Origin: Lysobacterales bacterium
Lineage (GTDB): Bacteria; Pseudomonadota; Gammaproteobacteria; Xanthomonadales; SZUA-5
NCBI GenBank assembly: GCA_022844165.1
Contig: JALHMH010000008.1
Coordinates: 73,834 to 137,833 of the forward strand
Direction: 5' to 3'
DNA length: 64,000 nt
This document shows, one piece after another, positions 4,849 through 62,754 of the stretch (positions are counted from its first letter, which is position 1; every line of letters starts with the position of its first letter). The translations under genes were made by a program, and so were the position numbers. The notes under the pieces are model-generated. The model did not search any database, was not told where the DNA came from, and saw only the letters and a list, made by a program, of their open reading frames with translations.

Positions 4849-5135
4849 GCGACGGGCGTCTCGTGGGTAGGCGAACGCTACGCTAAGAAGAACGGTCTCA
4901 GGGATTGAGAATAGATCCGCGCCTCGTCTGCAGGCGTTGGCTTGGGGCAGCAATCCAATGGCAGAGGGACACGATCAGCAACACGATAGGCAGTACCGTT
5001 GACCGAGGCGCATGTACACCTGAAAGCACGGGAACCGTGCGGTTTGCCTGAACTGCTCGCTGAAGCCGCTCGCCCAATCACGCCCTCCCGACGGCGGCGA
5101 ACGCTAACATGCGCATCAGAACTGAGTACATCATC

Positions 5136-5720: not shown

Positions 5721-5726
5721 CGGCAC

Positions 5727-7115: not shown

Positions 7116-7516
7116 GCAGCAGCCCGAGCGTAATCCCGGATCTTGGCGAGCACAGCCGACAAGCCGTTTTTTCGCGTTGGCGACAAGTGCGCCGAGAGTC
7201 CGATTTGCTCAATGAACTGCGGTTCCAGCCTGGCGACGTCGGCCGCTGGCCGGCCGCTGTAAACACGTAACACCAAGGCCAGCAATCCAGAGACGATTGC
7301 CGAGTCGCTTGCTGCCTTAAAGACCAGCGTGCCATTGGACTGCGCAGGCTTGAGCCACACCATCGATTGGCAACCAAGGACTCGGTATGCGTCGATGCGA
7401 TCCTCAGCGGGCAGCGCATCCAGTTTCTTGCCCAGATCAATCAGGTACTGATAGCGATCCGACCAGTCCGTGAACAGCGCGAACTCATCGACGATGGTCT
7501 GCTGAATTTCATCCAT
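7112..7516 (-). CDS. sufE: SufE-family sulfur acceptor
   Basis: DWSDRYQYLIDLG, GCQSMVW, SDSAIVSGL, LSPTRKNGL. Confidence 0.92.
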   Translation of the reverse strand: MDEIQQTIVDEFALFTDWSDRYQYLIDLGKKLDALPAEDRIDAYRVLGCQSMVWLKPAQSNGTLVFKAASDSAIVSGLLALVLRVYSGRPAADVARLEPQFIEQIGLSAHLSPTRKNGLSAVLAKIRDYARAAA

Positions 7517-14641: not shown

Positions 14642-15054
14642 GCCAGTGCGATTCCGGAGCAGCGCTTTGAACGCGCACCGCACAGGCTGGCGAACGGAAT
14701 CCGCGTTCAGTGTCGGCGAGCGCTGACAGCGAGCGGCTTGCGGCAATATTTTTGGCCGGGCTCGCGGAGAATATGCCTGTCGGCGATTCGTGCGGACCGA
14801 GATCGCGCACTCGCGCAAGCACGATCTGGGATTGGCGCAGTTGCTCAACGGCGAAACTTCACATATGAACCGGGTCAGCCCCCGGTTTTGAGCGACCGCG
14901 CAGCCGTCATTGACCTGATACTTCGCATTGAGCTCGATCAACAACCCGTCACGGTCGATGGATCGGTCGAAGTCCTCGCAGGGCGTCTCTCCCTTGCCAT
15001 CGCAGGCCGGGCCGATGATCCGCACCACGACCAATGGCAACTAAAGGCACTGCG

Positions 15055-29734: not shown

Positions 29735-29739
29735 GGCGA

Positions 29740-29879
29740 CACCGGAGTTCTTGACAGAGCGAGATCTGGACAATTGAGTCGAATTTTCTTCGAAGCGACT
29801 TTGGCTTTTGCAGCCCCTTAAGCTACGGGGTGAGACTCGGCGCTGACACGCCGCAGGCGTGTGCCAAGTCAAACGCCCA
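29740..29879 (-). repeat. Dispersed ~140-bp intergenic repeat, copy 1
   Basis: Reverse complement aligns to 59992-60128 (GGCACACGCCTGCGGCGTGTC...GCTGCAAAAGCCAAAG...GAAAATT.GACTCA). Confidence 0.85.
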
Positions 29880-29931
29880 GCGGCTGCGCCGCTGGGCCGG
29901 AAATGCGAAGCGCGGTTGTGGCGAGCGATTT

Positions 29932-43489: not shown

Positions 43490-43565
43490 GTGCGCCGGTG
43501 AAACCGGCGGAGTGCCAGGATGAGAGTCTTCGCCAACAAAGGTGGGATCGAACATCGATTCGGTC

Positions 43566-45059
43566 TCAGCGCGACCCACGGAGCGATTCGTGCGGCCCGC
43601 CGTGTTTACCCTTTGCAGGTGCTCTGTCGGCGCTCATTCTCAGCTCCAGCACGGCGGCCGGCAGGCGTGCGCGCCAGCCCTTTTTGCTGGCGCGCAACTC
43701 GTAGAGTCCGAACGGTGTGACCAGGGCGGCGCGGGTCAGAGTACCGTCGTCGCTGAGGCTGACGATCAGCAGCTTGCCGCCGGGCCAGGCGCGGGCGGTG
43801 GCGAAGGTCGCCGTCAGCGCCGGGTCTGGGTTGAGTATCCCGACGCAACGCCCATTTTCCAGCTCGAATTGCAGCGCGCCTCTGATTTTCGCCTCACCCA
43901 AAGTGCCCTGATAGCGCTGTGCTGGCAGTGGACAACTGCGCTGAACCAAGCGTTTGGGCTGCGGGCGAAATGGCGCTGCGAGCAGCATCGCCGAGCGCTC
44001 GATAGAAGAGACCCAGATGGCATTGGACATCAGACTGACCGCGGCGCGTTCGTCCGGCCAAAGCACCAACCCGGCGCGAGCACCTTCGGCGATACCAGCG
44101 TGATGTGCGATGGCAGCGCCATCCTCGTCGTGGCCGATGCGCCAGCCCAGGCCTACCTGATAATCGCGCTCGCCTGCCAATGTTCCGTCGTTGAGAGCAA
44201 AAGGCTCGCGCATTGCCATCCAGGTATTGGGCGAGACGATCTTGCCTTGCATCAATCTCCCCGCAAAACTGGCGGTTGCCGTGGGCGCTGCCGCCATTCC
44301 GCCGCCGGGTACGGTGTAGCTCATGTCATCGCCTGGCAGCAGGACCGGCGCATCACCATCGATGTTGTACAGCCGCGATACCTGCGCGCCCTTGCCGCTG
44401 GTGTCTTGCAGTACGTCCAGCCCTTGGGTCAGTTCGCGCTGGACGTAGTCGATGTAACTTGTGCCGACCGCTGCCTCGACCACGGCACCGATGAGTGTGT
44501 AGCCCCACGACGAGTATTCGTAACGCGCGCCCGGTTCAGCCCCGAGCGGGCGATCAAAAAACCAACGAACCGCAGCGCGAGCGTTACCGAAGTTCCGTTG
44601 ACCCAGCGCCTGATCGGCATCGATGTAGTGATCCAGTCCCGAAGCGTGGGCCGCGAGTTGGCGCAGGCTGATCTGCGGCCAGCGCGAACCCAGCCAGGGA
44701 AGATGGTCTGCAACGGGTGCATCGAGGTTGAGTTTTCCCTGTTCGGCCAGGCGCGCAATGGCCGTGGCGGCAAAGACTTTCGATACACTCGCCAGGCGAA
44801 ACACGGTGTTGGCCTCGACCGGTAGTCGCGCCTCCCGATCGCGCCAGCCTGCGCATCCGGCCCACACAACCTGGTCGTCCAGCCATATCGCTGCGCCCAT
44901 TCCCGGCACGCCACTGACATCGACCAGGGCCTGCAGCATGCGCTGCGAGCTGCGCCCAGCGGCGCTCGTTTCGCCGTCGCAGGAAGTGCTCTTTGCCGGG
45001 TGCGAGACGCAGAACGAGAACGACAACAGCAAACCGATATGAAATTTCTTGAACAACAT
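43566..45059 (-). CDS. Serine hydrolase (beta-lactamase-related)
   Basis: SVSK, YSS and HAG motifs; signal peptide. Confidence 0.88.
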   Translation of the reverse strand: MLFKKFHIGLLLSFSFCVSHPAKSTSCDGETSAAGRSSQRMLQALVDVSGVPGMGAAIWLDDQVVWAGCAGWRDREARLPVEANTVFRLASVSKVFAATAIARLAEQGKLNLDAPVADHLPWLGSRWPQISLRQLAAHASGLDHYIDADQALGQRNFGNARAAVRWFFDRPLGAEPGARYEYSSWGYTLIGAVVEAAVGTSYIDYVQRELTQGLDVLQDTSGKGAQVSRLYNIDGDAPVLLPGDDMSYTVPGGGMAAAPTATASFAGRLMQGKIVSPNTWMAMREPFALNDGTLAGERDYQVGLGWRIGHDEDGAAIAHHAGIAEGARAGLVLWPDERAAVSLMSNAIWVSSIERSAMLLAAPFRPQPKRLVQRSCPLPAQRYQGTLGEAKIRGALQFELENGRCVGILNPDPALTATFATARAWPGGKLLIVSLSDDGTLTRAALVTPFGLYELRASKKGWRARLPAAVLELRMSADRAPAKGKHGGPHESLRGSR

Positions 45060-47088: not shown

Positions 47089-47334
47089 CGCACCGCACGC
47101 GAACAGGCATCGATGGTTTTGGGCTGCAAACCCTTGAGTTTGAGGTGCTTCAGGTGGCACTGATACAGCGCACAAAGCGCTCACGATCTTGCTCGCAGGA
47201 CAAGCCTGTCAAGGTAGTCATTCCTCACGGTTGAAGGCACAATCACTCCCCCGGTCCGCGAAGGAATGCCCGTGAAGGTTACGCCGCAATCCTCATCCCG
47301 AAGACCACTTCTCCGCGTAGCGGCTTCGTTCAAC
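47089..47334 (-). mobile_element. 5'-end remnant (copy A) of the tyrosine-recombinase/IS91-like element
   Basis: Near-identical reverse complement of about 54112-54357, including the recombinase start (HLKHLKLKGLQPKTI); ends GCGGCTTCGTTCAAC on +. Confidence 0.9.
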
Positions 47335-47348
47335 TTTGCGTGTTAGAG

Positions 47349-47792
47349 ATGAAGAGGATGCGCGTACTGTGCAGTGACAACTTCTACCACGACGGCCGCG
47401 GTCCAACGTTGGTCCGTGTTCACTTGGCGGATGGGTCCGCGCACATCGAGGCGATCGACTATCAGCTACCCGATTCGGACGGCGGTCCGGAATTCAGTCG
47501 GCATCTGCTGTTCAGTCGCGCACAGGTGTACATGTTCACGCCCGAAGAGGTGGAGAACTACATGACTGCGCAGTCAGACTGGAGCAAGTCAGATCGTGGC
47601 GCGCTCGTTTCACTCGGCAAAAGCAGCTGGTTGTCATCGTTCAGTCAGCGGCACCTCGAGCGCTGTGAACACTATCGGGCGATGTTCTATGACGAGTTCT
47701 TGGACATTATCTGCGAGGGAATCACCAGCGAGCCCGGGTACTTCATCTCTAACAAAACCATGCAGCCGACGGGCCAGGGCGCGCGCGGCTGA
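47349..47792 (+). CDS. Cassette-encoded hypothetical protein
   Basis: ATG directly after GTTAGAG; ORF reads into the attC. Confidence 0.8.
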   Translation: MKRMRVLCSDNFYHDGRGPTLVRVHLADGSAHIEAIDYQLPDSDGGPEFSRHLLFSRAQVYMFTPEEVENYMTAQSDWSKSDRGALVSLGKSSWLSSFSQRHLERCEHYRAMFYDEFLDIICEGITSEPGYFISNKTMQPTGQGARG

Positions 47793-47807
47793 TGGTTGTC
47801 GTTGGGC
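47747..47807 (+). other. attC site
   Basis: CTCTAAC-5nt-CATGCAGC...GCTGATG-6nt-GTTGGGC. Confidence 0.88.
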
Positions 47808-47860
47808 CCCGCATGCTAGTTCTCGGTAACTCGTCCCATGCTTATTAGGAGTGAATTTGA

Positions 47861-48134
47861 GTGAACGTCTCGGAAAGCGCTCGCTTAGCTATTATGGCCT
47901 CTTTGGAAAATGCTCCATCAGGCTCCTTGCCTGTCTTGGTGGTCGGCTATCGCTATCACGAAGACCAACGCATTCCTTTTGTGGAAATTGAGTTTTATCC
48001 GCCGAAGAGCATTAGCGAGGATTCCTGCAGGTGATGGATTGACCTTTTATGAGGTACTCCCTGATTCCAGCGAATTGATTCGTGATAGAACGCTTCTGTT
48101 TCAGGACGGCAGTTTTCTTCTTTCCACGCAGTAA
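47861..48134 (+). pseudogene. Probable frameshifted cassette gene
   Basis: AGGAG + GTG start (VNVSESARLAIM...) stops at 48034; an overlapping frame continues GDGLTFYEV...STQ to 48134. Confidence 0.45.
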
Positions 48135-48173
48135 GAAGAAAATTTGGTTGAATGGCTGGCAGATTGAAAATGA

Positions 48174-48256
48174 ACTTAACGCTTGTTGGCAACCTGCCAA
48201 AGGTGCGAAGGCGACAGTACCTGCCTCCACGGTCAGGGTTAGCTCGAACGTTGGGC
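48174..48256 (+). other. Degenerate attC
   Basis: Clear right half GGTTAGC-TCGAAC-GTTGGGC; left half ACTTAAC pairs poorly. Confidence 0.55.
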
Positions 48257-48504
48257 TGCGGATTGAGCGTGCGGCTTGATCGCGCTTTGGTCACATCGCG
48301 CAGCGCGTCACCAGCGGCTTATTGCGCTCATCCAGTGGGCGACTTCGCCGCAGCATTCCAGACAACAGCGTCGCGCCATGCCGCGACCCACGGGACACGT
48401 CGCTCTTGTGGGTCGCGCTACAGCGCGACGCTCTTTTCTGTTCCGGTCGGGCAGCGTTTGCCAAACTGTCGACGTCAGGTGCCTAAGTGCACCAAAACAC
48501 CGTA

Positions 48505-48588
48505 GCCCAACAGCAAGCTCAATCGGACCGACGCTCTGCTGGGTTGCTTCGACCAATCATCCCTAAGCGGCGGCCGCTTAGCTCGAAC
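48505..48588 (+). other. attC lacking its R' box
   Basis: GCCCAAC-AGCAA-GCTCAATC...GCTTAGC-TCGAAC, followed by TGGACG instead of GTTRRRY. Confidence 0.7.
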
Positions 48589-48749
48589 TGGACGACTTCT
48601 CGAATCGACTACGATTCGGGTCTCTTTACCGTTCATGCTACCGCGCAGTCCACCATGGCCTACGCGGCGCGACAGTCGGGGGTGCGAGCCAGCTCGGTGG
48701 AGGTCCGGTTAGGGGAAATCTGGGCCACCCTTGCGGATAGTCGATGCTC

Positions 48750-49016
48750 CTAACCAGCGTGGAGTTCCTCCCGGATGATCCGCCTCAGCGTGCGCTCAAG
48801 CGTCCCTTCACTCTCTGCGATGTGCCCACGAAGCACCTCATTGATAAGGGTCTGGTAGTTGCCGCCGCCCACGACGCGACCGCGAAACCACGCCAAAACA
48901 TCTGCATCCAGGCGGATTGTGATGCGTTCTTTCCCCAGGCTCTCGGCCTGCAAGCGCGCAAGCGCTGGGACATCCTTGATGGACCTGGCTCCCGAAAAAT
49001 CGTATTCGTCGCGCAT
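48750..49016 (-). CDS. brnA: BrnA-family antitoxin
   Basis: EYDFS, KERITIRLDADVLAWFR, YQTLINEVLR. Confidence 0.9.
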   Translation of the reverse strand: MRDEYDFSGARSIKDVPALARLQAESLGKERITIRLDADVLAWFRGRVVGGGNYQTLINEVLRGHIAESEGTLERTLRRIIREELHAG

Positions 49017-49018
49017 AT

Positions 49019-49297
49019 TTAGCTCACCAACTCTCGATAGTGACGCGCTTCGCCAGGGCTGGCACTGCGCGCCGAAATGATTCGGACTACGTCTTCATCG
49101 CGCTCGGTCCAGACCACGAGCAGAACCGACCCGATGAATCCGCAACCGAGTGTCACGAACCGAGCTTCTTCTTCTGCATCAGGGTCTTCCCGCGTGATGC
49201 TCAGCGGATCAAGCAACGCTCCGATGGCGTCGGCAAAGTCAACATCGTGACGCTTGATGTTGGCAGCACGCTTTGATTCATCCCACTCGAAGTTCAT
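49019..49297 (-). CDS. brnT: BrnT-family RNase toxin
   Basis: FEWDESKRAANIKRHDVDF...RIISAR. Confidence 0.92.
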   Translation of the reverse strand: MNFEWDESKRAANIKRHDVDFADAIGALLDPLSITREDPDAEEEARFVTLGCGFIGSVLLVVWTERDEDVVRIISARSASPGEARHYRELVS

Positions 49298-49303
49298 GCC
49301 GCC

Positions 49304-49332
49304 AGTGTATGCACATCAAGCATACGACGCAA
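49304..49332 (-). promoter_or_regulatory. Sigma70 promoter and palindromic operator of brnTA
   Basis: Minus strand TTGCGT-17nt-TACACT-6nt-ATG; inverted repeat GTATGC-N7-GCATAC at 49307-49325. Confidence 0.65.
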
Positions 49333-49336
49333 GGGC

Positions 49337-50381
49337 GCGAAGCGCTGATCGCGCAGTATGGATCGCAATAGCAAGCGCATCAGCGGCGTGCGATGAGCGC
49401 CATTCTTACCTGCCGCAGCATACTCGGCTGCCTGGATTGGCGCTGCCCGGACTGCGCGGAGCGGCGCGAAACGCCGCGATCCTGCGGCCATCGCAATTGC
49501 CCGCAGTGTCAGAACCACACGACCACCGAATGGCTGGAGCGACAACGCGAGAAGCTGCTGCCCGTCGACTATTTCATGGTCACGTTTACGCTCCCTGCGG
49601 GGCTGCGAGCGCTGGCGCAAGCGCAGCCAAAGACGATGTACTCAGCCTTGTTCTGCGCCGCCTCCGAGACCCTCAAAGGCTTCGGCGAGCGCAAACTGCA
49701 CGCCGAACTCGGCCAGTGCGCGGTGCTGCACACGCACAACCGTCGACTCGATCTGCACCCGCACGTGCACATCGTCGTACCCGGCGGCGGCATCGACCGC
49801 AAACGCAAACAGTGGCGCAAGATTCAAGGCAGGTACTTGTTCAACACCTTCGCCCTCGCGCGCGTATTCCGCGCCAAAATGCTGCGCGCGCTTGAGCGTG
49901 CGGGCGTGTCGATACCGATCGGCTTGCCACCGAAGTGGGTGGTCGATTGCCGCAACGTCGGCCGCGGCGAACCGGCGCTTCGTTTCGTTTGCCTTGGCAA
50001 ACGAACGAATCAAAGACAGCTGTCGCGTTAACTCTATCGCGGCGTCATTCGCGAGCGCGATCTCGTGTCTTACGATGCGCAATCCGGCACTGTGACCTTC
50101 CGCTATATCGACGCCAGCACACAGCGGCCGGCGTATGCGAACTGCCCATCGCACAGTTCCTCTGGCATGTGCTGCAACACGTGTTGCCCATCGGTTTGCG
50201 TCGCGTGCGCGACGATGGGTTCCTGCACGGCAAAGCCAAAGCGCGACTGACGCTCGTGCAGCTGATCCTGCGCGTGCTCATCGCGCAGCGCGAACAAAAA
50301 CCCCGGCCGCCGCTATGCTGTCCGAAGTGCAAAACGCCGATGCGCTTGATTGGACCAATCTTGCGCAGGCCGGATGGATAA
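49337..50381 (+). pseudogene. IS91-family (HUH/Y2) transposase, disrupted
   Basis: Zn motif SCGHRNCPQCQ, YFMVTFTLP, HUH motif LHPHVH, LYRGVI, LQHVLP, RVRDDGFLH; in-frame stops and a frameshift. Confidence 0.9.
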
Positions 50382-50489
50382 ACCACCGATTGCGGATCGG
50401 CTTTTCGGTAAGCGTCCGACGCCGCACATCTAGATTCGGAGTTTTGTCTTCGCCAATCCTGTTCTCAACGCGACGTTGAGGCTAGATCG

Positions 50490-50678
50490 ATGCGAGGTGA
50501 GCGGTTGGGGGCGAGCGCGTGGTTTGCGCGGGTTTGGTTCTTTCAGCGTAGCGGCCTGAGTGCCCGAGCGTACTGCGCGGCGCAGGGCATTTCGTACTCG
50601 ACGTTCATGGGGTGGCGCTCGCGGCTGGTGCGCGAGCTGGCGGGTGGCCGTTTGCCGTTTCGGCGCTTCGTGCGATGA
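50490..50678 (+). CDS. tnpA: IS66 accessory protein TnpA
   Basis: HTH SGLSARAYCAAQGISYSTFMGW. Confidence 0.8.
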   Translation: MRGERLGASAWFARVWFFQRSGLSARAYCAAQGISYSTFMGWRSRLVRELAGGRLPFRRFVR

Positions 50679-51004
50679 CACCGACGCTGCCGTTGTTCGT
50701 GTGCGCTGAGGCGGTGGATTTTCGTCTCGGGATCGATGGTCTGGCGCTGCGGGTGCAGGCGAGTCTGGGTCCGCAGCGGGCGTTGAATGCTGCGCATGTG
50801 TTTTTCAATCGGGGGCGGGACAAGGTCAAGGTGCTGTGGTACGACCGGCACGGCTGGTGGTTGATGTACAAGCGCCTGGAGCGCGGTCGATTTGCCTCAA
50901 TACCGAGCGGCGCGCTGAGCGATGTTGAGCTGCGGTTGGTGCTCGAAGGCGTGGATTTATCGGTGCGTCGATTTGCCCCGGTACGCGGGGTGCGAGTGGC
51001 ATGA
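50675..51004 (+). CDS. tnpB: IS66 accessory protein TnpB
   Basis: VDFRLGIDGL, FFNRGRDKVKVLWYD, KRLERGRF. Confidence 0.92.
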   Translation: MTPTLPLFVCAEAVDFRLGIDGLALRVQASLGPQRALNAAHVFFNRGRDKVKVLWYDRHGWWLMYKRLERGRFASIPSGALSDVELRLVLEGVDLSVRRFAPVRGVRVA

Positions 51005-51078
51005 GAAGAGTATGGCTTTTTGCCGGCAATATGCTGATTTTGCTGGCTTTTTGCGTGGCGATTCGTAGTGTTTCTGAC

Positions 51079-52611
51079 ATGCAGATTGCCACCGACGATG
51101 CCCCAGTTCCTGCCGAAGTCCACCGCGCTGTGGTGGCCAAGCTTGAGGCGCTGACGATCGCATTCGAGAAACTTCAATTGCAGTTCCAAACGCTGCTCCG
51201 CCAGCGCTTCGGATCGAGCAGCGAGAACATCAAACAAATCCCACTGTTCGGCAGCATGGATGTCGAAGTTATCGAACAGGACAAGGTGTCGACGCCCGCG
51301 CCGCCGGCGAAGAAGGTCGTGGCGCGCGAGCGCGTGCTGTTGCCCAAAGACTTGCCAGTGATACGCGAAGTGATCGATGTGCCGGAGGCCGACAAGCTCG
51401 CGGCCGACGGCACGCCGAAGACGCAGATCGGCGAAGAGATCACGGTGAAGCTGGGCTATCGCCCGGCGGCATTCTTCAAGCGCGAGATCGTGCGGCCGAA
51501 GTACGCCGATCCGGCGGTGCCGGAGGCGGGCGTGACGATCGCTGCGCTGCCGCCGCAACTGCTCGATGGTTCGTTTCTTGACGCCACCTTAGGCGCTCAC
51601 CTGCTGGTCTCGAAATATGGCGATCACCTGCCGCTGTATCGCCTGGAAGACATCTACGCACGCGGCGGCGTGGCGCTGTCGCGCAGCACCTTGTGCGATT
51701 GGGTGATCGTGCTGACGGATCGCTGGCTGCGGCCGCTGGCGCAGGCGCTGAAGGTGCAACTGCTGCAGCAGAACGTGATCCATGTCGATGAGACGCCGCT
51801 GCCGCTGCAGCGCGATGGTCGGGTGGTCAAAGCGCGGCAATGGACCTACACCAGCCGCGATCCGAAGATCACGCTGTACGAGTTCACCGAGGACAAGGAA
51901 GGCGTGCACGTTCGCGAGTTCTTGCAAGGCTGGCGCGGGTATCTGCAAGCCGATGCCGCGAGCAATTACGATGCGCTATATCGCACGCGGCCTGAGGTGG
52001 TCGAAGTCGGATGCTGGGCGCATGCGCGGCGCAAGTTCTTCGATGTCGCAGCGGCAGCGGATAAGAACGCCAAGCCGGGCGAGAAGCCGCAGCGCATCCT
52101 CGCGCATGATGCGCTGGAGATGATCGGCGAGCTGTTCGCCATCGAACGCGCGGCCACTGAGGCGGGCGACGATCACAAACAGCGGCGAGCGCGGCGACGA
52201 TCGCAGGCGCAACCTGTCCTCGACAAGATCAAAGCCTGGTGCGAAGACAAACTTGCAGACGTCCTGCCGAAATCACCGACGGCGGGTGCGCTCAGCTATC
52301 TGCTCAAGCGCTGGGACGTGTTCACGCGTTACTTAGAAGACGGTCGCATCGCCATCGACAACAACGCCGCCGAGCGCGCATTGCGGCCGGTGACGATCGG
52401 TCGCAAGAACTGGCTATTCGCCGGTAGCAACCGCGGCGGCGACGCGTGCGCCATCGCCATGAGTTTGATCGCCACCGCCAAGGCACATGGCCACGATCCG
52501 CTCGCGTATCTCACCGATGTGCTGGCGCGATTGCCGACGCTGAAGGCCAAAGACATCGACAGCTTGCTGCCGATGAATTGGACAGCGCCAAAACAACCAA
52601 CGACTGCCTGA
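51079..52611 (+). CDS. tnpC: IS66 DDE transposase TnpC
   Basis: HLPLYR, HVDET, CWAHARRKF, IDNNAAERALR, GRKNWLF. Confidence 0.95.
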   Translation: MQIATDDAPVPAEVHRAVVAKLEALTIAFEKLQLQFQTLLRQRFGSSSENIKQIPLFGSMDVEVIEQDKVSTPAPPAKKVVARERVLLPKDLPVIREVIDVPEADKLAADGTPKTQIGEEITVKLGYRPAAFFKREIVRPKYADPAVPEAGVTIAALPPQLLDGSFLDATLGAHLLVSKYGDHLPLYRLEDIYARGGVALSRSTLCDWVIVLTDRWLRPLAQALKVQLLQQNVIHVDETPLPLQRDGRVVKARQWTYTSRDPKITLYEFTEDKEGVHVREFLQGWRGYLQADAASNYDALYRTRPEVVEVGCWAHARRKFFDVAAAADKNAKPGEKPQRILAHDALEMIGELFAIERAATEAGDDHKQRRARRRSQAQPVLDKIKAWCEDKLADVLPKSPTAGALSYLLKRWDVFTRYLEDGRIAIDNNAAERALRPVTIGRKNWLFAGSNRGGDACAIAMSLIATAKAHGHDPLAYLTDVLARLPTLKAKDIDSLLPMNWTAPKQPTTA

Positions 52612-52928
52612 TCCGGCGATGTTTGGCTAGATGTGCGGCGTCGGACGGATACGCTTTTCGCAACTCCAACAAGCCCACCGATCCGCAGCCCCGCGCACTG
52701 TTTGACGACAGCATCGAACACAGCGCCGGCCACTCATTTTGCAAAGGAGATTACGCAACGACTCGACGATTCAACCGCATCGCAAACGCACCGCTCAGCG
52801 CAGAGCACGGCTAAACTCGGCCAACGTTTATCGATGCGCCCACAGCCAATCGGCAACGCGCCAGACAACAGCCAAAGCGCGAAGATCTTTCCCCTATAAA
52901 GATGACACCAACCTGCGAGACCGGGCTT

Positions 52929-52981
52929 GTTCAACCCGGGATAGATCGCGGCTTCGCGCGATCTATCCCTATTCGTTAGGC
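52929..52981 (+). other. Element-borne attC-like terminal hairpin (copy B)
   Basis: GTTCAAC-CC-GGGATAGATCGCG-GCTTCG-CGCGATCTATCCC-TATTC-GTTAGGC. Confidence 0.75.
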
Positions 52982-53377
52982 CGCACTCGTGGCAGTGGAA
53001 GGCTGGAAGTAGATGTAGCGCCAGACTACCTGCCAGCCAGATGAGCCAAGTTCGAAGAAGAGTTGGTCTGTTCCTTCCTCCGACTTGGGTCCGCTCTCGC
53101 GCTGGTAGGTCATTCTCCAGTTAAACGTGTAGACAGCGCTTGTTTCCCAAGTCCTGAGCACGTGACTCGACTCTGAGTACTCGAGCACAGCAGCGTTGCT
53201 TGCGAACTCTCGATAGCTCTCGGCGCACTTCTCCCCACCAGCGGCAAACTCGACAAACCCTGGGCCAACTATGACCGCCTTTTGGTGAAAGCAGTCCTCC
53301 AGTCCGTCAAACTGCTTCGTCTTCCATGCGGCATCGATGATTCCAATTACCTTCCGTATAGCGGTCTCGTCTGGCAT
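52976..53377 (-). CDS. Cassette gene, NTF2/SnoaL-like protein
   Basis: GGAGGA RBS; NTF2-like pattern; stop lies within GCCTAAC. Confidence 0.8.
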   Translation of the reverse strand: MPDETAIRKVIGIIDAAWKTKQFDGLEDCFHQKAVIVGPGFVEFAAGGEKCAESYREFASNAAVLEYSESSHVLRTWETSAVYTFNWRMTYQRESGPKSEEGTDQLFFELGSSGWQVVWRYIYFQPSTATSAA

Positions 53378-53450
53378 CTTGGTCCTCCACGGGTTCAAGG
53401 CGCTTCGCCCGGATTCTGCTGCAGAAGAGGGGCAGTGCGGTTCCTGTGCG

Positions 53451-53585
53451 GCCTAACGTTGCGATAAGCGGTAGTTTTTCTGTTGCGCTTTTGAGTTACA
53501 CTCAATGAGCACCGCGAATTTAAAAGCGCAACAGAAAAACTATCCAGTGGAGCGAAGCGGAACGAGCTTGATCGCCTTGTTAGCG
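53451..53585 (-). other. Long AT-rich attC (135 bp)
   Basis: GCCTAAC...GTTAGCG on + with a long internal stem TAGTTTTTCTGTTGCGCTTTT / AAAAGCGCAACAGAAAAACTA. Confidence 0.9.
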
Positions 53586-53586
53586 A

Positions 53587-54021
53587 TTACCAAAATTTCC
53601 ACCATGATTTTTTCGCGTTGCCACTTCCAAAGCCTTCAGGGTGCTTCACGCCAGAATCACCGATTATTTCCCAAGACGCTTTTGAGTCAACATACATATG
53701 ATGAGCCACCTTTAGCTTTTCTTGGCCAACAGTAATGGTGCCCACAGGAATGTACATATTGCTTTCGTCATTCTCTCCAGGAAGCGCTGACCCACAAACA
53801 CTGCAAAAGTATGAATGCCAATCATGCTTGGGCTTTGACCAGTAAGTTATCTTGTCTTGGCCTCTTATCCAAGTGAACTTGTCGCGCCCGACTATCGACA
53901 CAGCGATTCCACCGCTACCGGTCGATTTGCGACAGATCGAACAATGGCAGATGAACACGTCCGAAATTTCGGTATCTACTTTGTACGCAACAGCTCCGCA
54001 GTTACATTCTCCCTCAATCAC
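53587..54021 (-). CDS. Cassette gene, GFA family (CENP-V/Mss4-like Zn protein)
   Basis: GECNCG, CHCSICRK, FCSVCGS. Confidence 0.9.
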   Translation of the reverse strand: MIEGECNCGAVAYKVDTEISDVFICHCSICRKSTGSGGIAVSIVGRDKFTWIRGQDKITYWSKPKHDWHSYFCSVCGSALPGENDESNMYIPVGTITVGQEKLKVAHHMYVDSKASWEIIGDSGVKHPEGFGSGNAKKSWWKFW

Positions 54022-54045
54022 GTTTTGACTCCTCTTCGTGTGCCC

Positions 54046-54118
54046 CGCTAACGCTGGAGCTAAGCGGCCACATCAATCGCGAAGCGATTGATTGGTCCGC
54101 TTGAGCGAACTGTTGAAC
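54046..54118 (-). other. attC body whose R'' box is supplied by the element's 5' end
   Basis: Minus strand GTTCAAC-AGTTC-GCTCAAGC...GCTTAGC-TCCAGC-GTTAGCG. Confidence 0.9.
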
Positions 54119-54224
54119 GAAGCCGCTACGCGGAGAAGTGGTCTTCGGGATGAGGATTGCGGCGTAATCTTCACGGGCATTCCTTCGCGGACCGGGGGAG
54201 TGATTGTGCCTTCAACCGTGAGGA

Positions 54225-55385
54225 ATGACTACCATGACAGGCTTGTCCGACGAACAAGATCGTGCGCGCTTTGATGCGCTGTATCAGTGCCACCTGAAGC
54301 ACCTCAAACTCAAGGGTTTGCAGCCCAAAACCATCGAAGCTTATTCGCGTGCGGTGCGGCGTGCGGGGGCGTATTTCGGGTATCGCATCGAAGCGCTCAG
54401 CGAGCCGCAGTTACGCGACTACTTCACCGAGCTGATCGGCTCGCATTCCTGGAGCACGGTTAAGCTCGATCTTTACGGCTTGCAGTTCTTTACCCAGCAC
54501 GTGCTGAAGCAACCGTGGACAGCACCGGGATTGATCAAGCCGCCTAACACGTTGTTGAGAAACGCACTTCCTGTGCGTTTCTCAAGTCGCGAGTCCGGCA
54601 CATGTCCGGACTCGCTCTGCATGGATCAAGCACTTACGTGCTTGACCCATGTGCGAACCATCCATGGTTCGCGCCCGCAGGCTGTTTCTCAACAGCCTGC
54701 TAAGTCGCAACGTCTGCCGAACATTGTCAGCGTCGCTGAGGCGTCGCGGATTTTCGCCGCCACGCGCGTGCTGAGCTACCGGGTGTTTTTCTTTACGCTC
54801 TACAGCATGGGTCTGCGGCTCGGCGAAGGTCTGTGTTTGCAGATTGGCGATATCGACGCGGCGCGTTCTCGGGTCACATCCGCAACGCTAAGGGCCTCAA
54901 GGACCGACTGGTTCCGCTGCCGAACGCCACCTTGCAGTGGCTGCGCAGCTTCTGGCGCATCCATCGCAACCCGCGCTTGCTGTTTCCCAATCGCTCGCAA
55001 GGACGGCGTCATCCGCGAAGACGACATCCTGGCTTGCGAGGACGGTCACGTGCGCTTTCGCTACCGCAATGGCAAGACCGGTGCGCTCCAAGAGCGCAGC
55101 TTACCCGGTGCGCAGTTTCTCATGCTGATCCTGCAGCATGTGTTGCCCAGAGGCTTTCGCCGCGCGCGTAACTTCGGCTTCCTGCATCCCAATCGCAAAC
55201 GCCTCCTCGCGCTGCTCTCCGTGGTGTTGCCGTTCGTGCCACCGCACAGCGCAGCCATCAAACCGCGACCAGCCATCCGATGCGCCTGCTGTGGCGCCGC
55301 CATGGCCATCACCAGCACACGGCTCCACCGCTCGACCACGGCCGATGTCCTGGCAACACAATCAACGGCGAACTCGGCTATGTAA
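54225..55385 (+). pseudogene. Tyrosine recombinase N-half fused by deletion to the IS91-type transposase C-terminus
   Basis: SAM-like N-domain (KTIEAYSRAVRR), YSMGLRLGEG box I, shifted frame IRNAKGLKDRLVPLP...LLFPN, then GVIREDDIL...LQHVLPRGFRRARNFGFLH and CxxC. Confidence 0.88.
54548..54699. mobile_element. 152-bp MITE with CTAA target duplication
   Basis: 16-bp TIRs CACGTTGTTGAGAAAC / GTTTCTCAACAGCCTG (14/16); CTAA at 54544-54547 and 54700-54703; removal restores IKPPKSQRLP. Confidence 0.9.
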
Positions 55386-55615
55386 CCCCACTCGCCACCA
55401 CCGCTGCCATTGGAGATCGGCGCCAGAGAGCCAAGACCTGCACATGGCAGCAGCCCACGAAACGAGAGGCCAAATCAGCGCAAATCGCCCCACGTCGATC
55501 CCGCAACATCCAACCGCGACAATACCGCCACCCATGACATCGAATTCGACCGATGTCGCGACGACACCCTCCAAAAGCTATTTCCTTGGGCGCGACAGAC
55601 GCCACGCAGGGGCTC

Positions 55616-55670
55616 ATCTAACAAACGCTTCAGATCGCGGCTGCGTGCGATCTAAGCTTATTCGTTAGAC
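55616..55670 (+). other. Element-borne attC-like terminal hairpin (copy C)
   Basis: ATCTAAC-AAAC-GCTT(C)AGATCGC...GCGATCTAAGC-TTATTC-GTTAGAC; polarity is + although the array is -. Confidence 0.78.
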
Positions 55671-56050
55671 GTATGTTCAAAACGCACCGACACGTACTCC
55701 GCATTGTCCTCAAATATCTCCAATACGATGTGCCAGAGTGTTGCTCCTCGACAGGCCTCAGCTTCGGAAAGGTGGATTGCGACACTCTCCCGATTGTTTT
55801 CATGGCATGTCTCGAGCATATCCTTGTACCAAAGCACCGTGGCTCTATGACCCAATACCTCCGGCATTTGTTCGGAGTTCAATAAGACCAGAACGTATGG
55901 TTTTTGATCCGGCCAAGAAAGACAGTCATTAAGCGCGTCAAGACTACCCTTCCAATTGCCACCACAAGGCTTGATCAGCCCGTCATTCAATGCAGTAACA
56001 AACGAAGAAAAATCCCGAACTCCCTTACAATTCACCCTGTACTCGGTCAT
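55658..56050 (-). CDS. Cassette gene, barstar-family protein
   Basis: GSLDALNDCL motif; ATG 2 nt after GTTAGAC. Confidence 0.8.
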   Translation of the reverse strand: MTEYRVNCKGVRDFSSFVTALNDGLIKPCGGNWKGSLDALNDCLSWPDQKPYVLVLLNSEQMPEVLGHRATVLWYKDMLETCHENNRESVAIHLSEAEACRGATLWHIVLEIFEDNAEYVSVRFEHTSNE

Positions 56051-56052
56051 AC

Positions 56053-56143
56053 GTCTAACAACGAAGCTAACCGGCGCCGGGCCGGCAAGGTTTGGTTGAC
56101 GCCGCAGTGCCCACCCGGCGTCCGGTGGGGCGCCTAGTTAGGT
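56053..56143 (-). other. attC site
   Basis: Minus strand ACCTAAC-TAGGC-GCCCCACC...GGTTAGC-TTCGTT-GTTAGAC. Confidence 0.85.
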
Positions 56144-56155
56144 AGATAGCCCAGA

Positions 56156-56467
56156 CTACTCGTCCCATGTGTCCTCCACTAATCGAGTTGCGATTGAGTC
56201 CGGATACGGAATGCGCGTACCTAAGCGTTTCAACACGTCTTCGTAGTGCTGGAGTTGACCTTCGAGCGTTTGCGCGAATTCAAAGAATGTGAAGTATGCC
56301 TCTTCGTCACGCCGCTGTTTTGCGTCCGCCAAAGCATTTACCAGATGTCGGTGAAGAGAACTCAGAGAGTCTCCCTGCATTACGATCCCGGGAAAATGTC
56401 GTCCAGGCATCTGTACAATGCCGCTATTCGAGAAGTGCGAGAGAATCTTTGCGTATTCTTGAGGCAT
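56156..56467 (-). CDS. Cassette gene, small hypothetical protein (DUF6959-like)
   Basis: MPGRHFPGIVMQGDSL...YEDVL...PY; cassette starts at GTTAGGT (56484-56478). Confidence 0.78.
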   Translation of the reverse strand: MPQEYAKILSHFSNSGIVQMPGRHFPGIVMQGDSLSSLHRHLVNALADAKQRRDEEAYFTFFEFAQTLEGQLQHYEDVLKRLGTRIPYPDSIATRLVEDTWDE

Positions 56468-56815
56468 GGCGACTGGTACCTAACTAAAAATAGACGACAA
56501 CAAGGCTACCCTGCGGTGTCGTCTAGTCGCAAGCCTACCCACAGATGGCGTGCCATGGCTTCTGCAAGCCGCCAATAGCAAACCTAAAACTCTGCGGACA
56601 GATTTGCGGCACAGAAGCAACAACAACTTTCTCGACAGCCCGCGCGCCTGCGTAACCCAAAGCACCGGCCACATCGCTCAGTCTGTCGATCTCCACTGCG
56701 CAACGCAGCAATGGATACGAAAACGTCAACGAGCTGGCGGATCGGGTGTCAGTGACCGACACACATTGGCATCTGGTCGGGTCCGAGGCGCGCGGTTTGA
56801 CGTCGAGCGCCGGGC

Positions 56816-59863: not shown

Positions 59864-59991
59864 TACCAGATTGATGGGCGAAGGTCGAAGCTCTGGCGAT
59901 GATCGCTCAGGATCTACCAGAAATGCGCATCTCCCGAACTGGGACGCTCTATGCGAACGAAGAGGACAAGCCGCAGATCGAGCGTAGCGGG

Positions 59992-60312
59992 TGGGCGTTC
60001 GACTCGGCACACGCCTGCGGCGTGTCTGCGACGAGTCTCACCCCCATGACTCAAGGTGCTGCAAAAGCCAAAGCCGCTCCGCAGAAAATTTGACTCAAAA
60101 GTACAGATCCGGCTCCGTCAAGGACGCCAACGAGGCTTCGCCTCAGACCGACGAGCATTGCTGGCTTCGCCAGACAGCGTGCTTGCCACAACCCCCATCG
60201 AGCGCTGCGCGCTCAATCGCCCCCTTAATTTAAGGGGGCTTCAAAAGCCAAAGCCGCTTCGTAGAAAATTTGACTCATTTGTCGAGAGGAGTCTCCGTCA
60301 AGGACGCTGGTG
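59992..60312 (+). repeat. Dispersed repeat copy 2 (59992-60128) plus a tandem partial copy (60231-60312)
   Basis: CAAAAGCCAAAGCCGCT.CG.AGAAAATTTGACTCA and CTCCGTCAAGGACGC each occur twice; aligns to 29740-29879. Confidence 0.85.
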
Positions 60313-60327
60313 CGACGGGATCGAAGG

Positions 60328-62754
60328 TCAATTCTGTCTCAGCGCGACCGACGGAGCGATTCGTGCGGCCCTCCCGGCGGGAATCACGCAGGCGACGATT
60401 GCAATGGCCGACAACAGGCCGACGGAGCCCAACAGCAGCGGAACGTCGATGGCCTTGGCGCCAACGAACAGGTTGGCCACCAATTGCAGTACAAGTAGCG
60501 CCAGCGGCAGCGCCAAGAGGACGCCAATTCCGACCAGGCGCAGCCCGCGACGGCGAACCTCGCGTGCGATTTGCCCCGGCTCTGCGCCCAGTGCCTGACG
60601 CACACCAAACTCGCGCAACCTTGAATAAACGAATTGACTCAACAGACCGTAAAGTCCAAGCGATACCAGCAGCAGGCCGATGCCGCTCAGGCCGGCGACC
60701 ACAACACTGGCGATCCGCTGCGGAAACAGTGCCACCGCCGCTTGCTCGGCAAGGGCAAATACCTGTGGCGGCGGCAGGTTCGTGTCGATTCGTTCGACGG
60801 CCGTGGCCAGGGCGGCGGCAGCTTGTGCTGGTTGTAAGTCGCTGCGCAGCAACAGATTCAGGCCATTCATCGGATACTGGGCCAACGGCAACAACAGAAA
60901 GCCACGCTGCTCCTCGCCCAACGATGCGTAACGGCTGTCTTCGATGACGCCGACGACTGTCAGATCGCGGCGTTCGCCTGTTTCGCCATAGCTGAACCGA
61001 CGGCCGAGAGCATCGTCGTCGCCAAAAAGTTGCCCGGCCAGATGACGATTGATGATGGCGACCAGTGGCTTTCCTGCAACATCGTTGCTGTCGAAGTCGC
61101 GCCCGCGCAGCGGAATATCGAGCACGCGGGTGAATCCCGGCGAGACCACATTCGCATCCGGATAAATCCCATCGGGGGGCAGACCTTCGCCTTCGATATT
61201 GCCGAGCGACATGCTGGAGAGTGTGAGAGGGACCACCGCTGCCAGGGCGCCCTCGGTCACGCCCGGCAGGCCTCGTGCAGCTTGCAATAGTTGTTCGGCC
61301 GCTGGTCCGGCGCGTTCACTGGAATAACCGCTGGTGGCGAGGTCGAATGCGACCGTCAGAACCCCATCGATCCGGATGCCAGGGTCGATCGCCTCGGTCT
61401 GTTTGGTTGCGCTAAGGAGCGCGCCGCCGCCGACGATCAAGATCAGTGTGGCCGCCACCTGCAGGACCGACAGAACCTGTTGCGAACGTTGGCTGCGGAA
61501 TCGCTGTAGTTCACCCGCAATACGACTATGCGCGGCTCGCCACGCTGGAATGAGGCCGCAGGCGGTCGCCGTCGCCAGCGCCAGAAAAAATGCGAAACCG
61601 AGCACATTTCGGTCTGGTGTCATGTCGAAGTGCAACGGTAGTGGGATCGGTAGCGGAATCGCTACGAGGAGTCGAAGCCCTGACCAGGACAGGGCAACGC
61701 CCAGTGCAGTAGCCACTAAAGCCAGCAGGAACGCTTCGCTCAGCATCATCGACGTCAGATGCCAGCGGGAGGCGCCCAACGACAAACGTAAAGCCAATTC
61801 GGCCCGCCGTTCCTCAGCACGGGCCAAACTCAATCCTGCGACATTGATGCAGGCGACCAACAACAATGTGCCGACCAGCAGGCCGAGCACGCCGGCAAAA
61901 ACCAACAGGCCGCGCATCGCCGCTGCGGGCAGTGGACGCAGCGAGACGGCCGTCAGGCGAAGTGGAGAACGTTCGTCTTCGCCCAGCTCACGGCGAACGG
62001 TCGTCAGGCGTTCGCCGATGATCGCAAGTTCGGCATGCGTCTCGGCTAAAGTTCTACCTTCAGCCAAACGTGCGCCCATCATCAACCACTCCGCCAGGCG
62101 GTTATCGACCAGGTTTTCTGTGCTTGGGCGGATCAACGCGCGGCGCGTGAGCGGTAAAAAGAACTCCGGAGCAAGTCCCGCCATGTGGCCGCGAAACTCC
62201 GGCGCCGTGACACCGACGATGTTGAAAGCACTGCCGTTGATTGTCAGGGTGCGGCCAACGACATCGGCATCGCCGGCATACAAGCGTTGCCATGCGCCGT
62301 GAGATAGCACGGCTGCAGGTGTGCCGCCGTCCTGAGTCAGATCGGCGGGCAGAAGCATGCGGCCCAACTGCGCGCGTACACCCAGCGCCGCGAAGTAGCT
62401 GTCGCTGACCAGAAATCCAAAGCTGTTTCCAGCATTTGGCGCGCCTTCCGCTCGCACGGTCAGCGGCGCCATGCTCCAGCCGAACACATCGCGCAGTGTC
62501 TGAGACTGGGCGGCGATGTCGCGAAAATCTGGATACGACAGCGAGCTGAAGCCGCCACCGGGTCGGCCAATCTCCACTAACTCAGTGGCGGCCGCGATAC
62601 CCGGCAGCGGCCGCAACAAGCCGAGGTTGACCACCGAAAAAAGGGCTGTCAAAGCAGCGATCGCCACAGCCAGCGGTAGCAGTGCAAGCGCGCTCAACCA
62701 GGGATGGCGGGTCCACTCGCGAATGGCATTTGGGATCAAAGTCAGAGCGTGCAT
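60328..62754 (-). CDS. Duplicated ABC permease (ADOP/MacB-FtsX type), no adjacent ATPase
   Basis: SYPDFRDI, LLVACINVAGL, ELALRLSLGA, REFGVRQALGA, PSVALR. Confidence 0.9.
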   Translation of the reverse strand: MHALTLIPNAIREWTRHPWLSALALLPLAVAIAALTALFSVVNLGLLRPLPGIAAATELVEIGRPGGGFSSLSYPDFRDIAAQSQTLRDVFGWSMAPLTVRAEGAPNAGNSFGFLVSDSYFAALGVRAQLGRMLLPADLTQDGGTPAAVLSHGAWQRLYAGDADVVGRTLTINGSAFNIVGVTAPEFRGHMAGLAPEFFLPLTRRALIRPSTENLVDNRLAEWLMMGARLAEGRTLAETHAELAIIGERLTTVRRELGEDERSPLRLTAVSLRPLPAAAMRGLLVFAGVLGLLVGTLLLVACINVAGLSLARAEERRAELALRLSLGASRWHLTSMMLSEAFLLALVATALGVALSWSGLRLLVAIPLPIPLPLHFDMTPDRNVLGFAFFLALATATACGLIPAWRAAHSRIAGELQRFRSQRSQQVLSVLQVAATLILIVGGGALLSATKQTEAIDPGIRIDGVLTVAFDLATSGYSSERAGPAAEQLLQAARGLPGVTEGALAAVVPLTLSSMSLGNIEGEGLPPDGIYPDANVVSPGFTRVLDIPLRGRDFDSNDVAGKPLVAIINRHLAGQLFGDDDALGRRFSYGETGERRDLTVVGVIEDSRYASLGEEQRGFLLLPLAQYPMNGLNLLLRSDLQPAQAAAALATAVERIDTNLPPPQVFALAEQAAVALFPQRIASVVVAGLSGIGLLLVSLGLYGLLSQFVYSRLREFGVRQALGAEPGQIAREVRRRGLRLVGIGVLLALPLALLVLQLVANLFVGAKAIDVPLLLGSVGLLSAIAIVACVIPAGRAARIAPSVALRQN

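Follow-up and report, generated by a model that had tools for sequence, protein, structure and literature searches.

Decayed recombinase-IS91 copies among integron cassettes

We analysed a stretch of 64,000 nucleotides (the window) from a Lysobacterales bacterium, which has a G+C content of 61% and matches C8:73834-137833, on one of the 59 contigs of a 4.68-Mb genome. At 47.0-56.5 kb, the window contains two short integron cassette arrays of opposite senses, and among them lie three pieces, here called copies A, B and C, of an element that combines a tyrosine recombinase gene with an IS91-family transposase gene. A sequence-only reading of this DNA had suggested that the element is a self-mobile cassette that carries an attC of its own and inserts, inverted, into the attC sites of integron arrays.

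Copy C (54112..55664, plus strand, with its start at 54112/3) begins with GTTGAACGAAGCCGCTACGCGG and ends with ...AGATCGCGGCTGCGTGCGATCTAAGCTTATTCG|TTAGAC. It holds a single open reading frame (ORF) of 386 aa (54225-55385) that matches both Phage_int_SAM_4 (51 bits) and Y2_Tnp (47.4 bits). The part from the ATG at 54225 to ~54991 (plus strand) belongs to the recombinase, and 55005-55385 (plus strand) encodes the C-terminal third of the Y2_Tnp domain. A tblastn comparison with intact relatives showed a fusion of the recombinase (residues ~35-206) with the transposase (residues ~255-361), and we therefore conclude that copy C has undergone an internal deletion of ~1 kb. Its right-end hairpin (55616-55664) was the top match of our attC scanner in the window, in plus orientation, and the whole right end reads ATCTAAC-AAAC-GCTT-C-AGATCGCG-loop-CGCGATCT-AAGC-TTATTC-G, then TTAGAC. 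A 160-bp palindromic miniature inverted-repeat transposable element lies at ~54544-54703 within the recombinase gene; more than 50 other copies of it, with 80-98% identity, are present on most contigs of the genome, several of them at contig ends.

Copy A (47089..47334, minus strand) is a left-end remnant of 246 nt, truncated at 47089, that retains the terminal GTTGAAC, a small hairpin, the 5' untranslated region and the first ~44 recombinase codons. Self-BLAST recovered it as an inverted match of 54112-54358 in copy C, with 95.95% identity over 247 nt. A repeat search with a minimum length of 200 found no repeats in the window, because the copies differ by indels.

Copy B (plus strand) is in two parts. 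The first (49300..50407) is 5'-truncated: it starts inside the transposase gene near 49300, without the left end and without the recombinase gene, and consists of frameshifted pieces of an IS91 transposase (~residues 7-357 of 379 by tblastn against an intact relative). Pfam matches to Zn_Tnp_IS91 (PF14319, 78.5 bits) and Y2_Tnp (PF04986, 67.9 and 26.1 bits) were above the cut-offs. An IS66-family element with inverted ends follows (50408..52652, plus strand; TnpB_IS66 and DDE_Tnp_IS66, 302.8 bits), flanked by an 8-bp target duplication, GCTTTTCG, at 50400-50407 and 52653-52660. The paralogous element on contig C13 (C13:1429-1443) contains GCTTTTCG once, uninterrupted, and therefore represents the true empty site for the IS66 insertion. 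The second part of copy B (52653..52975), 98.5% identical to C13:1443-1108, includes the right end (52929-52975), which is composed of a GTTCAAC box, the hairpin AGATCGCG/CGCGATCT and TATTCG, and terminates at 52975 as ...AGATCGCGGCTTCGCGCGATCTATCCCTATTCG|TTAGGC.

Copies B and C had been read as copies of one element with related terminal hairpins. The hairpins are indeed related; they are also the only place where the two align at the DNA level (37 nt), which separates B and C into two lineages. Judged by these alignments, copies A and C are one lineage and B is the other. All three copies are dead, and no intact copy exists in this genome, in which four Y2_Tnp matches were found and none was complete. 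Further fragments of the element lie on contigs C13, C42, C3, C27 and C55. At C13:1-1800, a single reversed cassette lies between two element remnants; the right end of one precedes it, and its attC is followed by the left end of the other. Such repeats fragment the assembly, since contig C13 breaks inside the second remnant.

Removal of copy C restores a canonical attC site

In the integron literature, the canonical attC is laid out as R'', a 5-nt spacer and an L'' with one extra base, followed after the loop region by L', a 6-nt spacer and R'. When 54113-55664 was removed by script, the flanks joined into a 73-nt minus-strand site with R'' GTCTAAC and R' GTTAGCG, in which L'' GCTCAAGC and L' GCTTAGC pair at 7/7 positions and the spacers measure 5 nt and 6 nt. 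No bases are repeated on reading across copy C, so that a target duplication is absent. The proposal that deletion of copy C restores a canonical attC without target duplication was thus borne out. In its present, interrupted state the locus carries a hybrid attC (54046..54118, minus strand): its R'', GTTCAAC, is contributed by copy C, whose left end it matches in reverse complement, and the remainder (5-nt spacer, GCTCAAGC...GCTTAGC, 6-nt spacer, GTTAGCG) is the original site. The inserted element accordingly has an attC-like site on each side, the hybrid on the left and its own hairpin on the right, as had been predicted.

The attC scanner assigned the sites of this array to the minus strand and the terminal hairpin of copy C to the plus strand. 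Given this opposite asymmetry, copy C is inverted and entered the array at the R'' core, on its top strand. Copy A is likewise antiparallel to its neighbour, the plus-strand cassette whose attC lies at 47747-47807. This orientation had been noted beforehand, together with an end at GTTCAAC; the orientation holds, and the junction consists only of GTTCAAC-TTTGCGT-GTTAGAG, without a full attC.

Conserved anatomy and ends across genomes

One genome per species was scanned with an alignment of the transposase, which yielded 80 loci from 80 public contigs. The clade studied here is defined by a transposase at least ~38% identical to that of an intact relative and by the left end GTTGRACGAAGCCGC. 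A recombinase match was found directly upstream of the transposase, on the same strand, at 70/80 loci, and relatives with intact units and the same ends occur in the same bacterial family as the window. The intact element measures ~2.4 kb and consists of the left end, the tyrosine recombinase gene, a Y2 HUH transposase gene and the right end. Transposases of intact relatives scored 361-367 bits against NF033538, 'IS91 family transposase' (cut-off 125).

The left end resembles a terIS and reads GTTGRAC-GAA-GCCGC..GCGG, with CCGC..GCGG lying 10 nt from the terminus; for the clade it is GTTGGACGAAGCCGCTACGCGGAG. The right end resembles an oriIS. Its GTYCAAC box is separated by 4-5 nt from a 12-bp hairpin in which one C is bulged, and TTATTCG follows; the clade form is GTCCAAC-AAAC-GGTT-C-AGATYGTG-loop-CACRATCT-AACC-TTATTC-G. 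The bounds of the element are therefore like those of a cassette, beginning with TTGRAC and ending with a hairpin plus TTATTCG. These termini are near-invariant, and the flanks unrelated, across Burkholderiales, Rhodocyclaceae, Accumulibacter, Methylococcales, Halopseudomonas, Desulfobacterota and Fimbriimonadaceae.

The terminal hairpin was examined in 23 aligned right ends. In the 12-bp helix, 98.9% of cells were paired, and 6/12 helix pairs were altered on both sides, in 27 cells, as compensatory changes. The covariation score was reached by 0/500 shuffles, and sliding the partner columns lowered pairing to 27-44%. The bulge column (column 16) held a letter in 22/23 right ends (20 C, 2 A, 1 gap; the letter of winB was shifted by the alignment). 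The 3' spacer measures 6 nt; on the 5' side, most copies have a 4-nt spacer, and a copy from an E. coli plasmid (see below) has one of 5 nt. A refutation test set in advance asked whether this hairpin follows the neighbouring cassette; over the 23 right ends, whose flanks differ, it was found to vary with the element.

The box and the left terminus change together. In the wider family, 36/47 elements contain, downstream of the transposase, a 7-mer perfectly reverse-complementary to the left terminus, with a chance expectation of ~4%. The pairs of left terminus and box were GTTGGAC/GTCCAAC (12), GTTGAAC/GTTCAAC (16), GTTGCAC/GTGCAAC (6) and GTTGTAC/GTACAAC (2). The GTYCAAC box is complementary to GTTGRAC at a head-to-tail junction and also to flanks of the GTTAGGC type. 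By their complementarity, box and terminus can pair at a circle junction or as a cleavage guide, and the box can also pair with GTTRRRY targets.

An intact copy interrupts a class 1 integron of an E. coli plasmid

A protein search of plasmids identified an intact clade member at 5018-7354 of NZ_LT985243.1 (L110), an IncC conjugative plasmid of E. coli. It lies in a class 1 integron with the order intI1, aac(6')-Ib3, aadA2, cmlA1, aadA1, element, qacEdelta1-sul1, on the strand opposite to the cassettes, and is annotated there as 'site-specific integrase' and 'IS91 family transposase'. When the flanks were joined across the element, a 60-nt site emerged after aadA1, with R pairing of 7/7 and L pairing of 7/7. 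This reconstructed site agrees at 50/60 positions with the attC of aadA2, which is uninterrupted in this integron, and it contains no repeated bases. The terminal hairpin of the plasmid copy has spacers of exactly 5 nt and 6 nt. Among 72,556 plasmids this was the one full copy; a Shewanella plasmid retains a 245-nt right end of it (94.7%). A search of 5,426 complete E. coli genomes gave no match to the plasmid element.

Target sites and orientation

The right flank begins with TT at 32/33 right ends, most often as TTAGGC, and together with the terminal G of the element it forms GTT followed by R or T, in a GTTRRRY-like word. Insertion takes place directly 5' of GTTR, the target word being GTTA or GTTG, without target duplication. 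At the other end, 15/32 left junctions had a canonical attC whose start coincides exactly with the left end in reverse complement, compared with 89/3069 (2.9%) at random AAC positions; the 32 junctions include three probable chance matches to the left-end pattern. With a cleaner left-end pattern, a relaxed attC test was passed by 16/31 junctions, against a null of 2.2%, and by eye four or five further flanks were attC-like hairpins below the thresholds. Two early versions of the scanner were dropped as too noisy at 61% G+C, and the statistic 'best hairpin over all GTT ends', which chose over-long folds, was excluded from the counts.

Orientation was uniform. The strict attC junctions were inverted in 15/15 cases, with the crossover in R'', and all 11/11 strict attC matches in element-bearing loci lay on the strand opposite to the element. 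In arrays anchored by an integrase gene, the element was inverted in 5/5 (contig C27, L038, L042, L041 and the E. coli IncC plasmid). Direct-sense passes numbered 2/32 left junctions, one of which was the element's own hairpin in a tandem. The orientation bias, which the sequence-only reading had named as a check on itself, is therefore present. The scanner background was low, at 28 strict matches in the whole 4.68-Mb genome. A match to the integron integrase model TIGR02249 above its cut-off was found in 10/10 host genomes tested and in 0/14 controls.

Two observations by the way concern neighbours of the element. In a Photobacterium plasmid (L111:1810-3282), a group II intron reverse transcriptase gene, annotated ltrA, lies directly upstream of the element, and in Halopseudomonas (L037:4579-4985) the element flanks resemble, by eye, the inside of a maturase-type ORF.

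Miniatures, head-to-tail junctions and distant clades

A 349-bp miniature in Methylococcales (L036:2385-2733) has in common with the neighbouring full element no more than 33 nt at the left terminus and 67 nt at the right one. Since these terminal 33 and 67 nt are all that it keeps, the ends suffice in cis. The core of this miniature is AT-rich and unrelated, and the miniature lies between attC sites, one cassette away from the full copy.

Another contig contains two tandem head-to-tail copies, 95.9% identical, with the junction ...TAATCG|TTGGACGAAGCC. In contigs assembled from three DNA runs of three studies, the right end of the element at an Accumulibacter locus was connected back to its left end ('goes back 2418'; side of 53 letters, depth 95-197). 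A second joint in contigs of three DNA runs ('skips 2347') connects the initial ~26 nt with the final ~55 nt; it is to be taken with caution, as its side is only 26 letters. In an RNA run, no joint was seen at this locus.

Distant clades, mostly in Bacteroidota and with the left end GTTGNACTAAAYC, keep the recombinase, the box and the hairpin. Their link to attC amounts to 1/30 passes, equal to chance; on this ground, attC invasion is particular to one clade, and the architecture itself is older. BLAST between pairs of copies from the distant clades gave ragged ends.

The recombinase and its A tract

The recombinase consists of Phage_int_SAM_4, a Xer/IntI-type N-terminal domain, and a Phage_integrase catalytic domain. 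Its best NCBIfam model was that of the integron integrase, TIGR02249, at 87-156 bits against a cut-off of 265. Compared with the integron integrase (IntI) of this genome it is 29% identical, with 37 gap positions opposite the extra segment of IntI, where the TIGR02249 match is split in two. The in-frame recombinase from Accumulibacter keeps R, K, HxxR, H and Y. That IS91 elements with an upstream tyrosine recombinase exist had been stated in the earlier reading and is confirmed: a preprint already places recombinases 'found in IS91 and IS3 transposons', which lack the IntI insertion, as the closest homologues of IntI (bioRxiv 10.1101/542381).

Between the LDRGGVQ and PHSLRH motifs, the recombinase gene contains an A7-A9 tract, CTAAAAAAAAGATCAC (L031:5695-5710 and 18 other genes). 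In these 19 gene copies, the catalytic half is in the -1 frame in 12, in frame in 2, in both of which the tract is broken, and otherwise shifted in 5. The tract may be a site of programmed slippage or a mutable on/off (contingency) switch.

A preference for attC with probable IS91-like movement

We regard the pieces in the window as probably decayed members of an IS91-family clade that strongly prefers the R''-complement GTTRRRY of attC and moves in an IS91-like manner. The anatomy, the conserved ends with their paired hairpin, the targets and the orientation, the co-occurrence with integrons, the miniatures and the head-to-tail junctions are all observed. In the sense of the array, entry occurs just 3' of, or inside, the R'' AAC on the top strand, so that the element is always antiparallel to the cassettes.

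The movement, which we infer to involve a single-stranded intermediate, would most likely proceed as follows. The Y2 transposase would nick the right end and release or copy one strand as a circle, in which the left-terminal GTTGRAC would pair with the GTYCAAC box and so complete an attC-like fold. The strand would then be joined into a single-stranded or extruded attC, the transposase presumably cutting beside YAAC both at the origin end of the element and in the target. The top strand of attC resembles the origin end, because it offers YAAC, a spacer and a hairpin. As the ends match the ordinary terIS/oriIS plan, the HUH transposase alone could cut and join. The recombinase probably binds the attC-like fold, and it may guide target choice, resolve tandems or join in the exchange; the joining enzyme is, like the cause of the fixed orientation, a matter of inference. 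The 'own attC' of the element is, by its point-by-point fit to the IS91 layout, also an IS91 origin end. The idea of a self-mobile cassette integrated by its own recombinase is therefore supported in part only, given that about half of the sites are non-attC and the ends are of IS91 type. What stands of the proposed attC targeting is the entry at the R'' core, antiparallel and without duplication; confinement to attC does not stand.

Several results weigh against this reading. At roughly half of the left junctions the test detects no attC, and at least eight sites are non-attC and look like ordinary DNA or other elements (L037, L039, L042, L043, L046, L047, L051 and L063); all but one of these eight keep TAAC on the array-sense strand, without a hairpin. 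One right flank is ATAGGG and does not continue as GTT. The attC detector was a home-made pattern-plus-folding scanner, not IntegronFinder. The preference for attC could also partly reflect survival in a neutral haven. One member of a distant clade, with the left end GTTGAACTGAACCGC (L107:844-4643), lies ~450 nt from the start of intI in direct sense. The head-to-tail joints, seen in assembled contigs, fit tandem copies and circles alike. A replication-strand bias was not borne out by GC skew over 120 kb around three chromosomal copies in three genomes: the skew was +0.068 for one copy on the minus strand, which fits entry into the lagging-strand template, -0.048 for another on the minus strand, at a non-attC site, which contradicts it, and a flat +0.009 for the third. 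We found no structural reason for the choice of the top over the bottom strand of attC, since the bottom strand follows the same YAAC-spacer-hairpin plan. Loss of direct-sense copies through excision by IntI would be an alternative account of the fixed orientation. Finally, the recombinase could itself perform the exchange, its catalytic residues being complete in the in-frame copy.

This last point leads to a serious rival, which we consider possible rather than probable. The HUH enzyme would make a single-stranded circle, and the IntI-like recombinase of the element would join the folded junction (bottom strand) to a folded attC (top strand) at AAC/GTT, with replication resolving the product. 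Its weight comes from a recombinase that is complete and IntI-like and that meets a substrate resembling attC. Its kinship with Xer and IntI, at 29% identity to the IntI of this genome and with all catalytic residues, speaks for such a role, as does the published placing of IS91-linked recombinases as the closest IntI homologues (10.1101/542381). So does the right end, which follows the attC plan of box, spacer, bulge in the 5' arm and 6-nt 3' spacer, with the plasmid copy at exactly 5/6. The covariation of box and left end across the family, the crossover inside the shared AAC/GTT, as in integrons, and the preference for structured attC over the far commoner plain GTTRRRY words point the same way. 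However, the ends fit a plain IS91 plan equally, and IS91 relatives work without a recombinase (PMC13181058). The non-attC sites keep TAAC without a hairpin, the recombinase lacks the extra segment of IntI and scores below the family cut-off, and its catalytic half is out of frame behind the A tract in 17/19 gene copies. The distant clades, moreover, share recombinase and box, but with an attC link no better than chance.

We also entertain, with considerable doubt, an idea about origins: the recombinase-plus-IS91 family as a whole may carry at its circle junction a homologue of attC, made up of the box paired with the left terminus, a spacer and a bulged hairpin, and its recombinase may be sister to IntI, so that single-stranded DNA made by an HUH enzyme is coupled to a recombinase acting on folded strands. 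Integrons might in that case have taken IntI and attC from an element of this kind, or the transfer might have gone the other way, and the invading clade would exploit this shared ancestry from the strand that IntI leaves unused.

Returning to the preferred reading of an attC preference with IS91-like movement, its premise that attC is truly sought can be questioned, though we think the objection improbable. Any accessible GTTR(RRY) might pair with the box, harmless arrays might accumulate copies, and direct-sense copies might be lost to excision by IntI. Such an account would suit the half of the sites that are non-attC yet have TAAC, the definition of attC cores as GTTRRRY/RYYYAAC, and the decayed state of every copy in this genome, suggestive of a long neutral stay. 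It is at odds with the share of the sites that are attC, about half, when attC is a tiny part of the genome (28 strict matches per 4.68 Mb), and with an insertion point that is always the same core of the site. The recent-looking intact copy in a plasmid class 1 integron and the presence of IntI in 10/10 hosts speak against it as well.

IntI normally yields direct-sense insertion. An ordinary gene cassette with unusual cargo, moved by the host IntI and inverted through rare top-strand recombination, would account for the TTGRAC start, the attC-like site plus G at the end and the IntI of the hosts, but it is highly improbable in view of the invariably inverted orientation, the occupied non-attC sites, the IS91-type ends, the miniatures with those ends only and the same architecture in clades without an integron link.

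Flanking cassettes and other features of the window

The plus-strand cassette beside copy A (47335..47807) has an ORF of 150 aa for which a Pfam search gave no family, and its attC (47747-47807, plus strand) was read by the scanner as CTCTAAC-5-CATGCAGC...GCTGATG-6-GTTGGGC. A toxin-antitoxin pair (48750..49297), made up of BrnA antitoxin (48750-49016, minus strand; PF14384, 51.5 bits) and BrnT toxin (49019-49297, minus strand; PF04365, 82.1 bits), adjoins the truncated 5' side of copy B. Between copies B and C lie, on the minus strand, a DUF4440/SnoaL-like cassette (52976-53398) and a GFA cassette (53587-54021), both assigned by Pfam, separated by an attC found by the scanner (53451-53585, minus strand). 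Beyond copy C follow a Barstar cassette (55658..56050, minus strand; PF01337, 33.2 bits), with the cassette start GTTAGAC at 56050-56056 in minus-strand reading, and a DUF6959 cassette (56156-56467, minus strand; PF22281, 67.5 bits). The stop codon of Barstar is placed within copy C, 6 nt in from its right end.

At the head of the minus-strand array, an attI-like 31-mer (56479-56509, minus strand) is identical at 29/31 positions to a stretch directly upstream of intI on contig C27. No intI gene follows beyond the 31-mer. The single full integron integrase of the genome is that of contig C27 (TIGR02249, 465 bits against a cut-off of 265). Given the match of the 31-mer to the stretch upstream of the C27 gene, the minus-strand array begins at an attI-like site whose integrase gene has been lost, and it appears to be a second integron platform of the genome.

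Outside this region, further short repeats with 81-90% identity were noted (29721-29889 and 59982-60156; 14796-14897 and 17984-18085; 43544-43601 and 60317-60374), some of them near Ser/Thr kinase-TPR genes.

Relation to known systems

Insertion sequences of the IS91 family with an upstream tyrosine recombinase are listed in ISfinder. For IS91, IS801 and IS1294, PMC13181058 describes insertion without duplication at a target tetranucleotide CTTG, GTTC or GTCC beside oriIS, a terIS with the cleavage tetranucleotide CTCG or GTTC and one subterminal palindrome, one or two palindromes at oriIS, and single- and double-stranded circles with an oriIS-terIS junction. The present element is like the IS91 family (IS91, IS801, IS1294; ISCR) in its Y2 HUH transposase with an N-terminal zinc domain, the lack of duplication and the target tetranucleotide at the origin end. 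The left cleavage tetranucleotide GTTG with the CCGC..GCGG palindrome and the palindrome of the right end complete the likeness, and the head-to-tail junctions may correspond to oriIS-terIS junctions of circles or to tandem copies. It differs in targeting GTTR in attC cores, whereas IS91 uses GTTC or CTTG anywhere, and the word GTTA/GTTG in place of GTTC makes this a variant target specificity. Two further differences are the upstream tyrosine recombinase, where IS91 has nothing or orf121, and the 7-nt box upstream of the origin hairpin that is complementary to the left terminus.

A named IS91-type member with an upstream recombinase, ISShvi3, appears in PMC9229058, and an 'integron-like subgroup' of recombinases in bioRxiv 10.1101/542381. 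Such members have the same two-gene layout and a recombinase near IntI without the IntI insertion. The existence of IS91 members with a recombinase and the kinship of that recombinase to IntI are thus already known.

The IS1111-attC group also consists of insertion sequences that specifically invade cassette attC sites (PMC9229058, PMC11187229). According to PMC11187229, they use an RNA-guided DEDD transposase, in contrast to the HUH transposase, recombinase and DNA hairpin end found here; domain searches of the element's proteins found only Y2_Tnp/IS91 and tyrosine-recombinase domains and no DEDD transposase. Group IIC-attC introns share the attC target and the orientation opposite to the cassettes (PMC9229058), but they are retroelements with a ribozyme and a reverse transcriptase and have no component in common with the element. 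Like integron cassettes, the element has G|TTRRRY bounds and a folded end that carries R and L boxes plus an extrahelical base, and its recombinase is related to IntI. Unlike them, the element has its own mobility genes, is inverted, enters R'' rather than R' and also occurs outside arrays. The IS200/IS605 family offers partial parallels in HUH chemistry, subterminal hairpins, recognition of cleavage sites through pairing with a short guide next to the hairpin, single-stranded DNA and a lagging-strand bias (PMC5027513 and PMC6006769); its enzyme, however, is of the Y1 type, it has no recombinase and its transposase is unrelated.

A literature search, with ISfinder/TnPedia, subscription journals and supplements outside its reach, found no description of insertion at R'' or of the fixed inverted sense. 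Within the same limits, it found none of an attC-like end with covariation, of the pairing of box and terminus, or of the frame shift at the A tract.

Significance for integron arrays

Units of this element and their miniatures are likely to be miscalled in annotation as cassettes or as extra attC sites. Insertion divides an attC into two halves, both attC-like and located on opposite strands, which should alter the set of cassettes that IntI can excise, and it adds repeats through which arrays may undergo homologous rearrangement. The clade is spread over at least five phyla, and a single member was found in a class 1 integron of clinical type carried by a conjugative E. coli plasmid. If the preferred reading is true, the clade represents a third kind of attC invader beside the IS1111-attC group and the group IIC-attC introns, and one mechanistically unrelated to either. 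It would also make two questions approachable, namely what part a tyrosine recombinase plays in rolling-circle transposition of the IS91 type and how the single-strand recombination of integrons originated.

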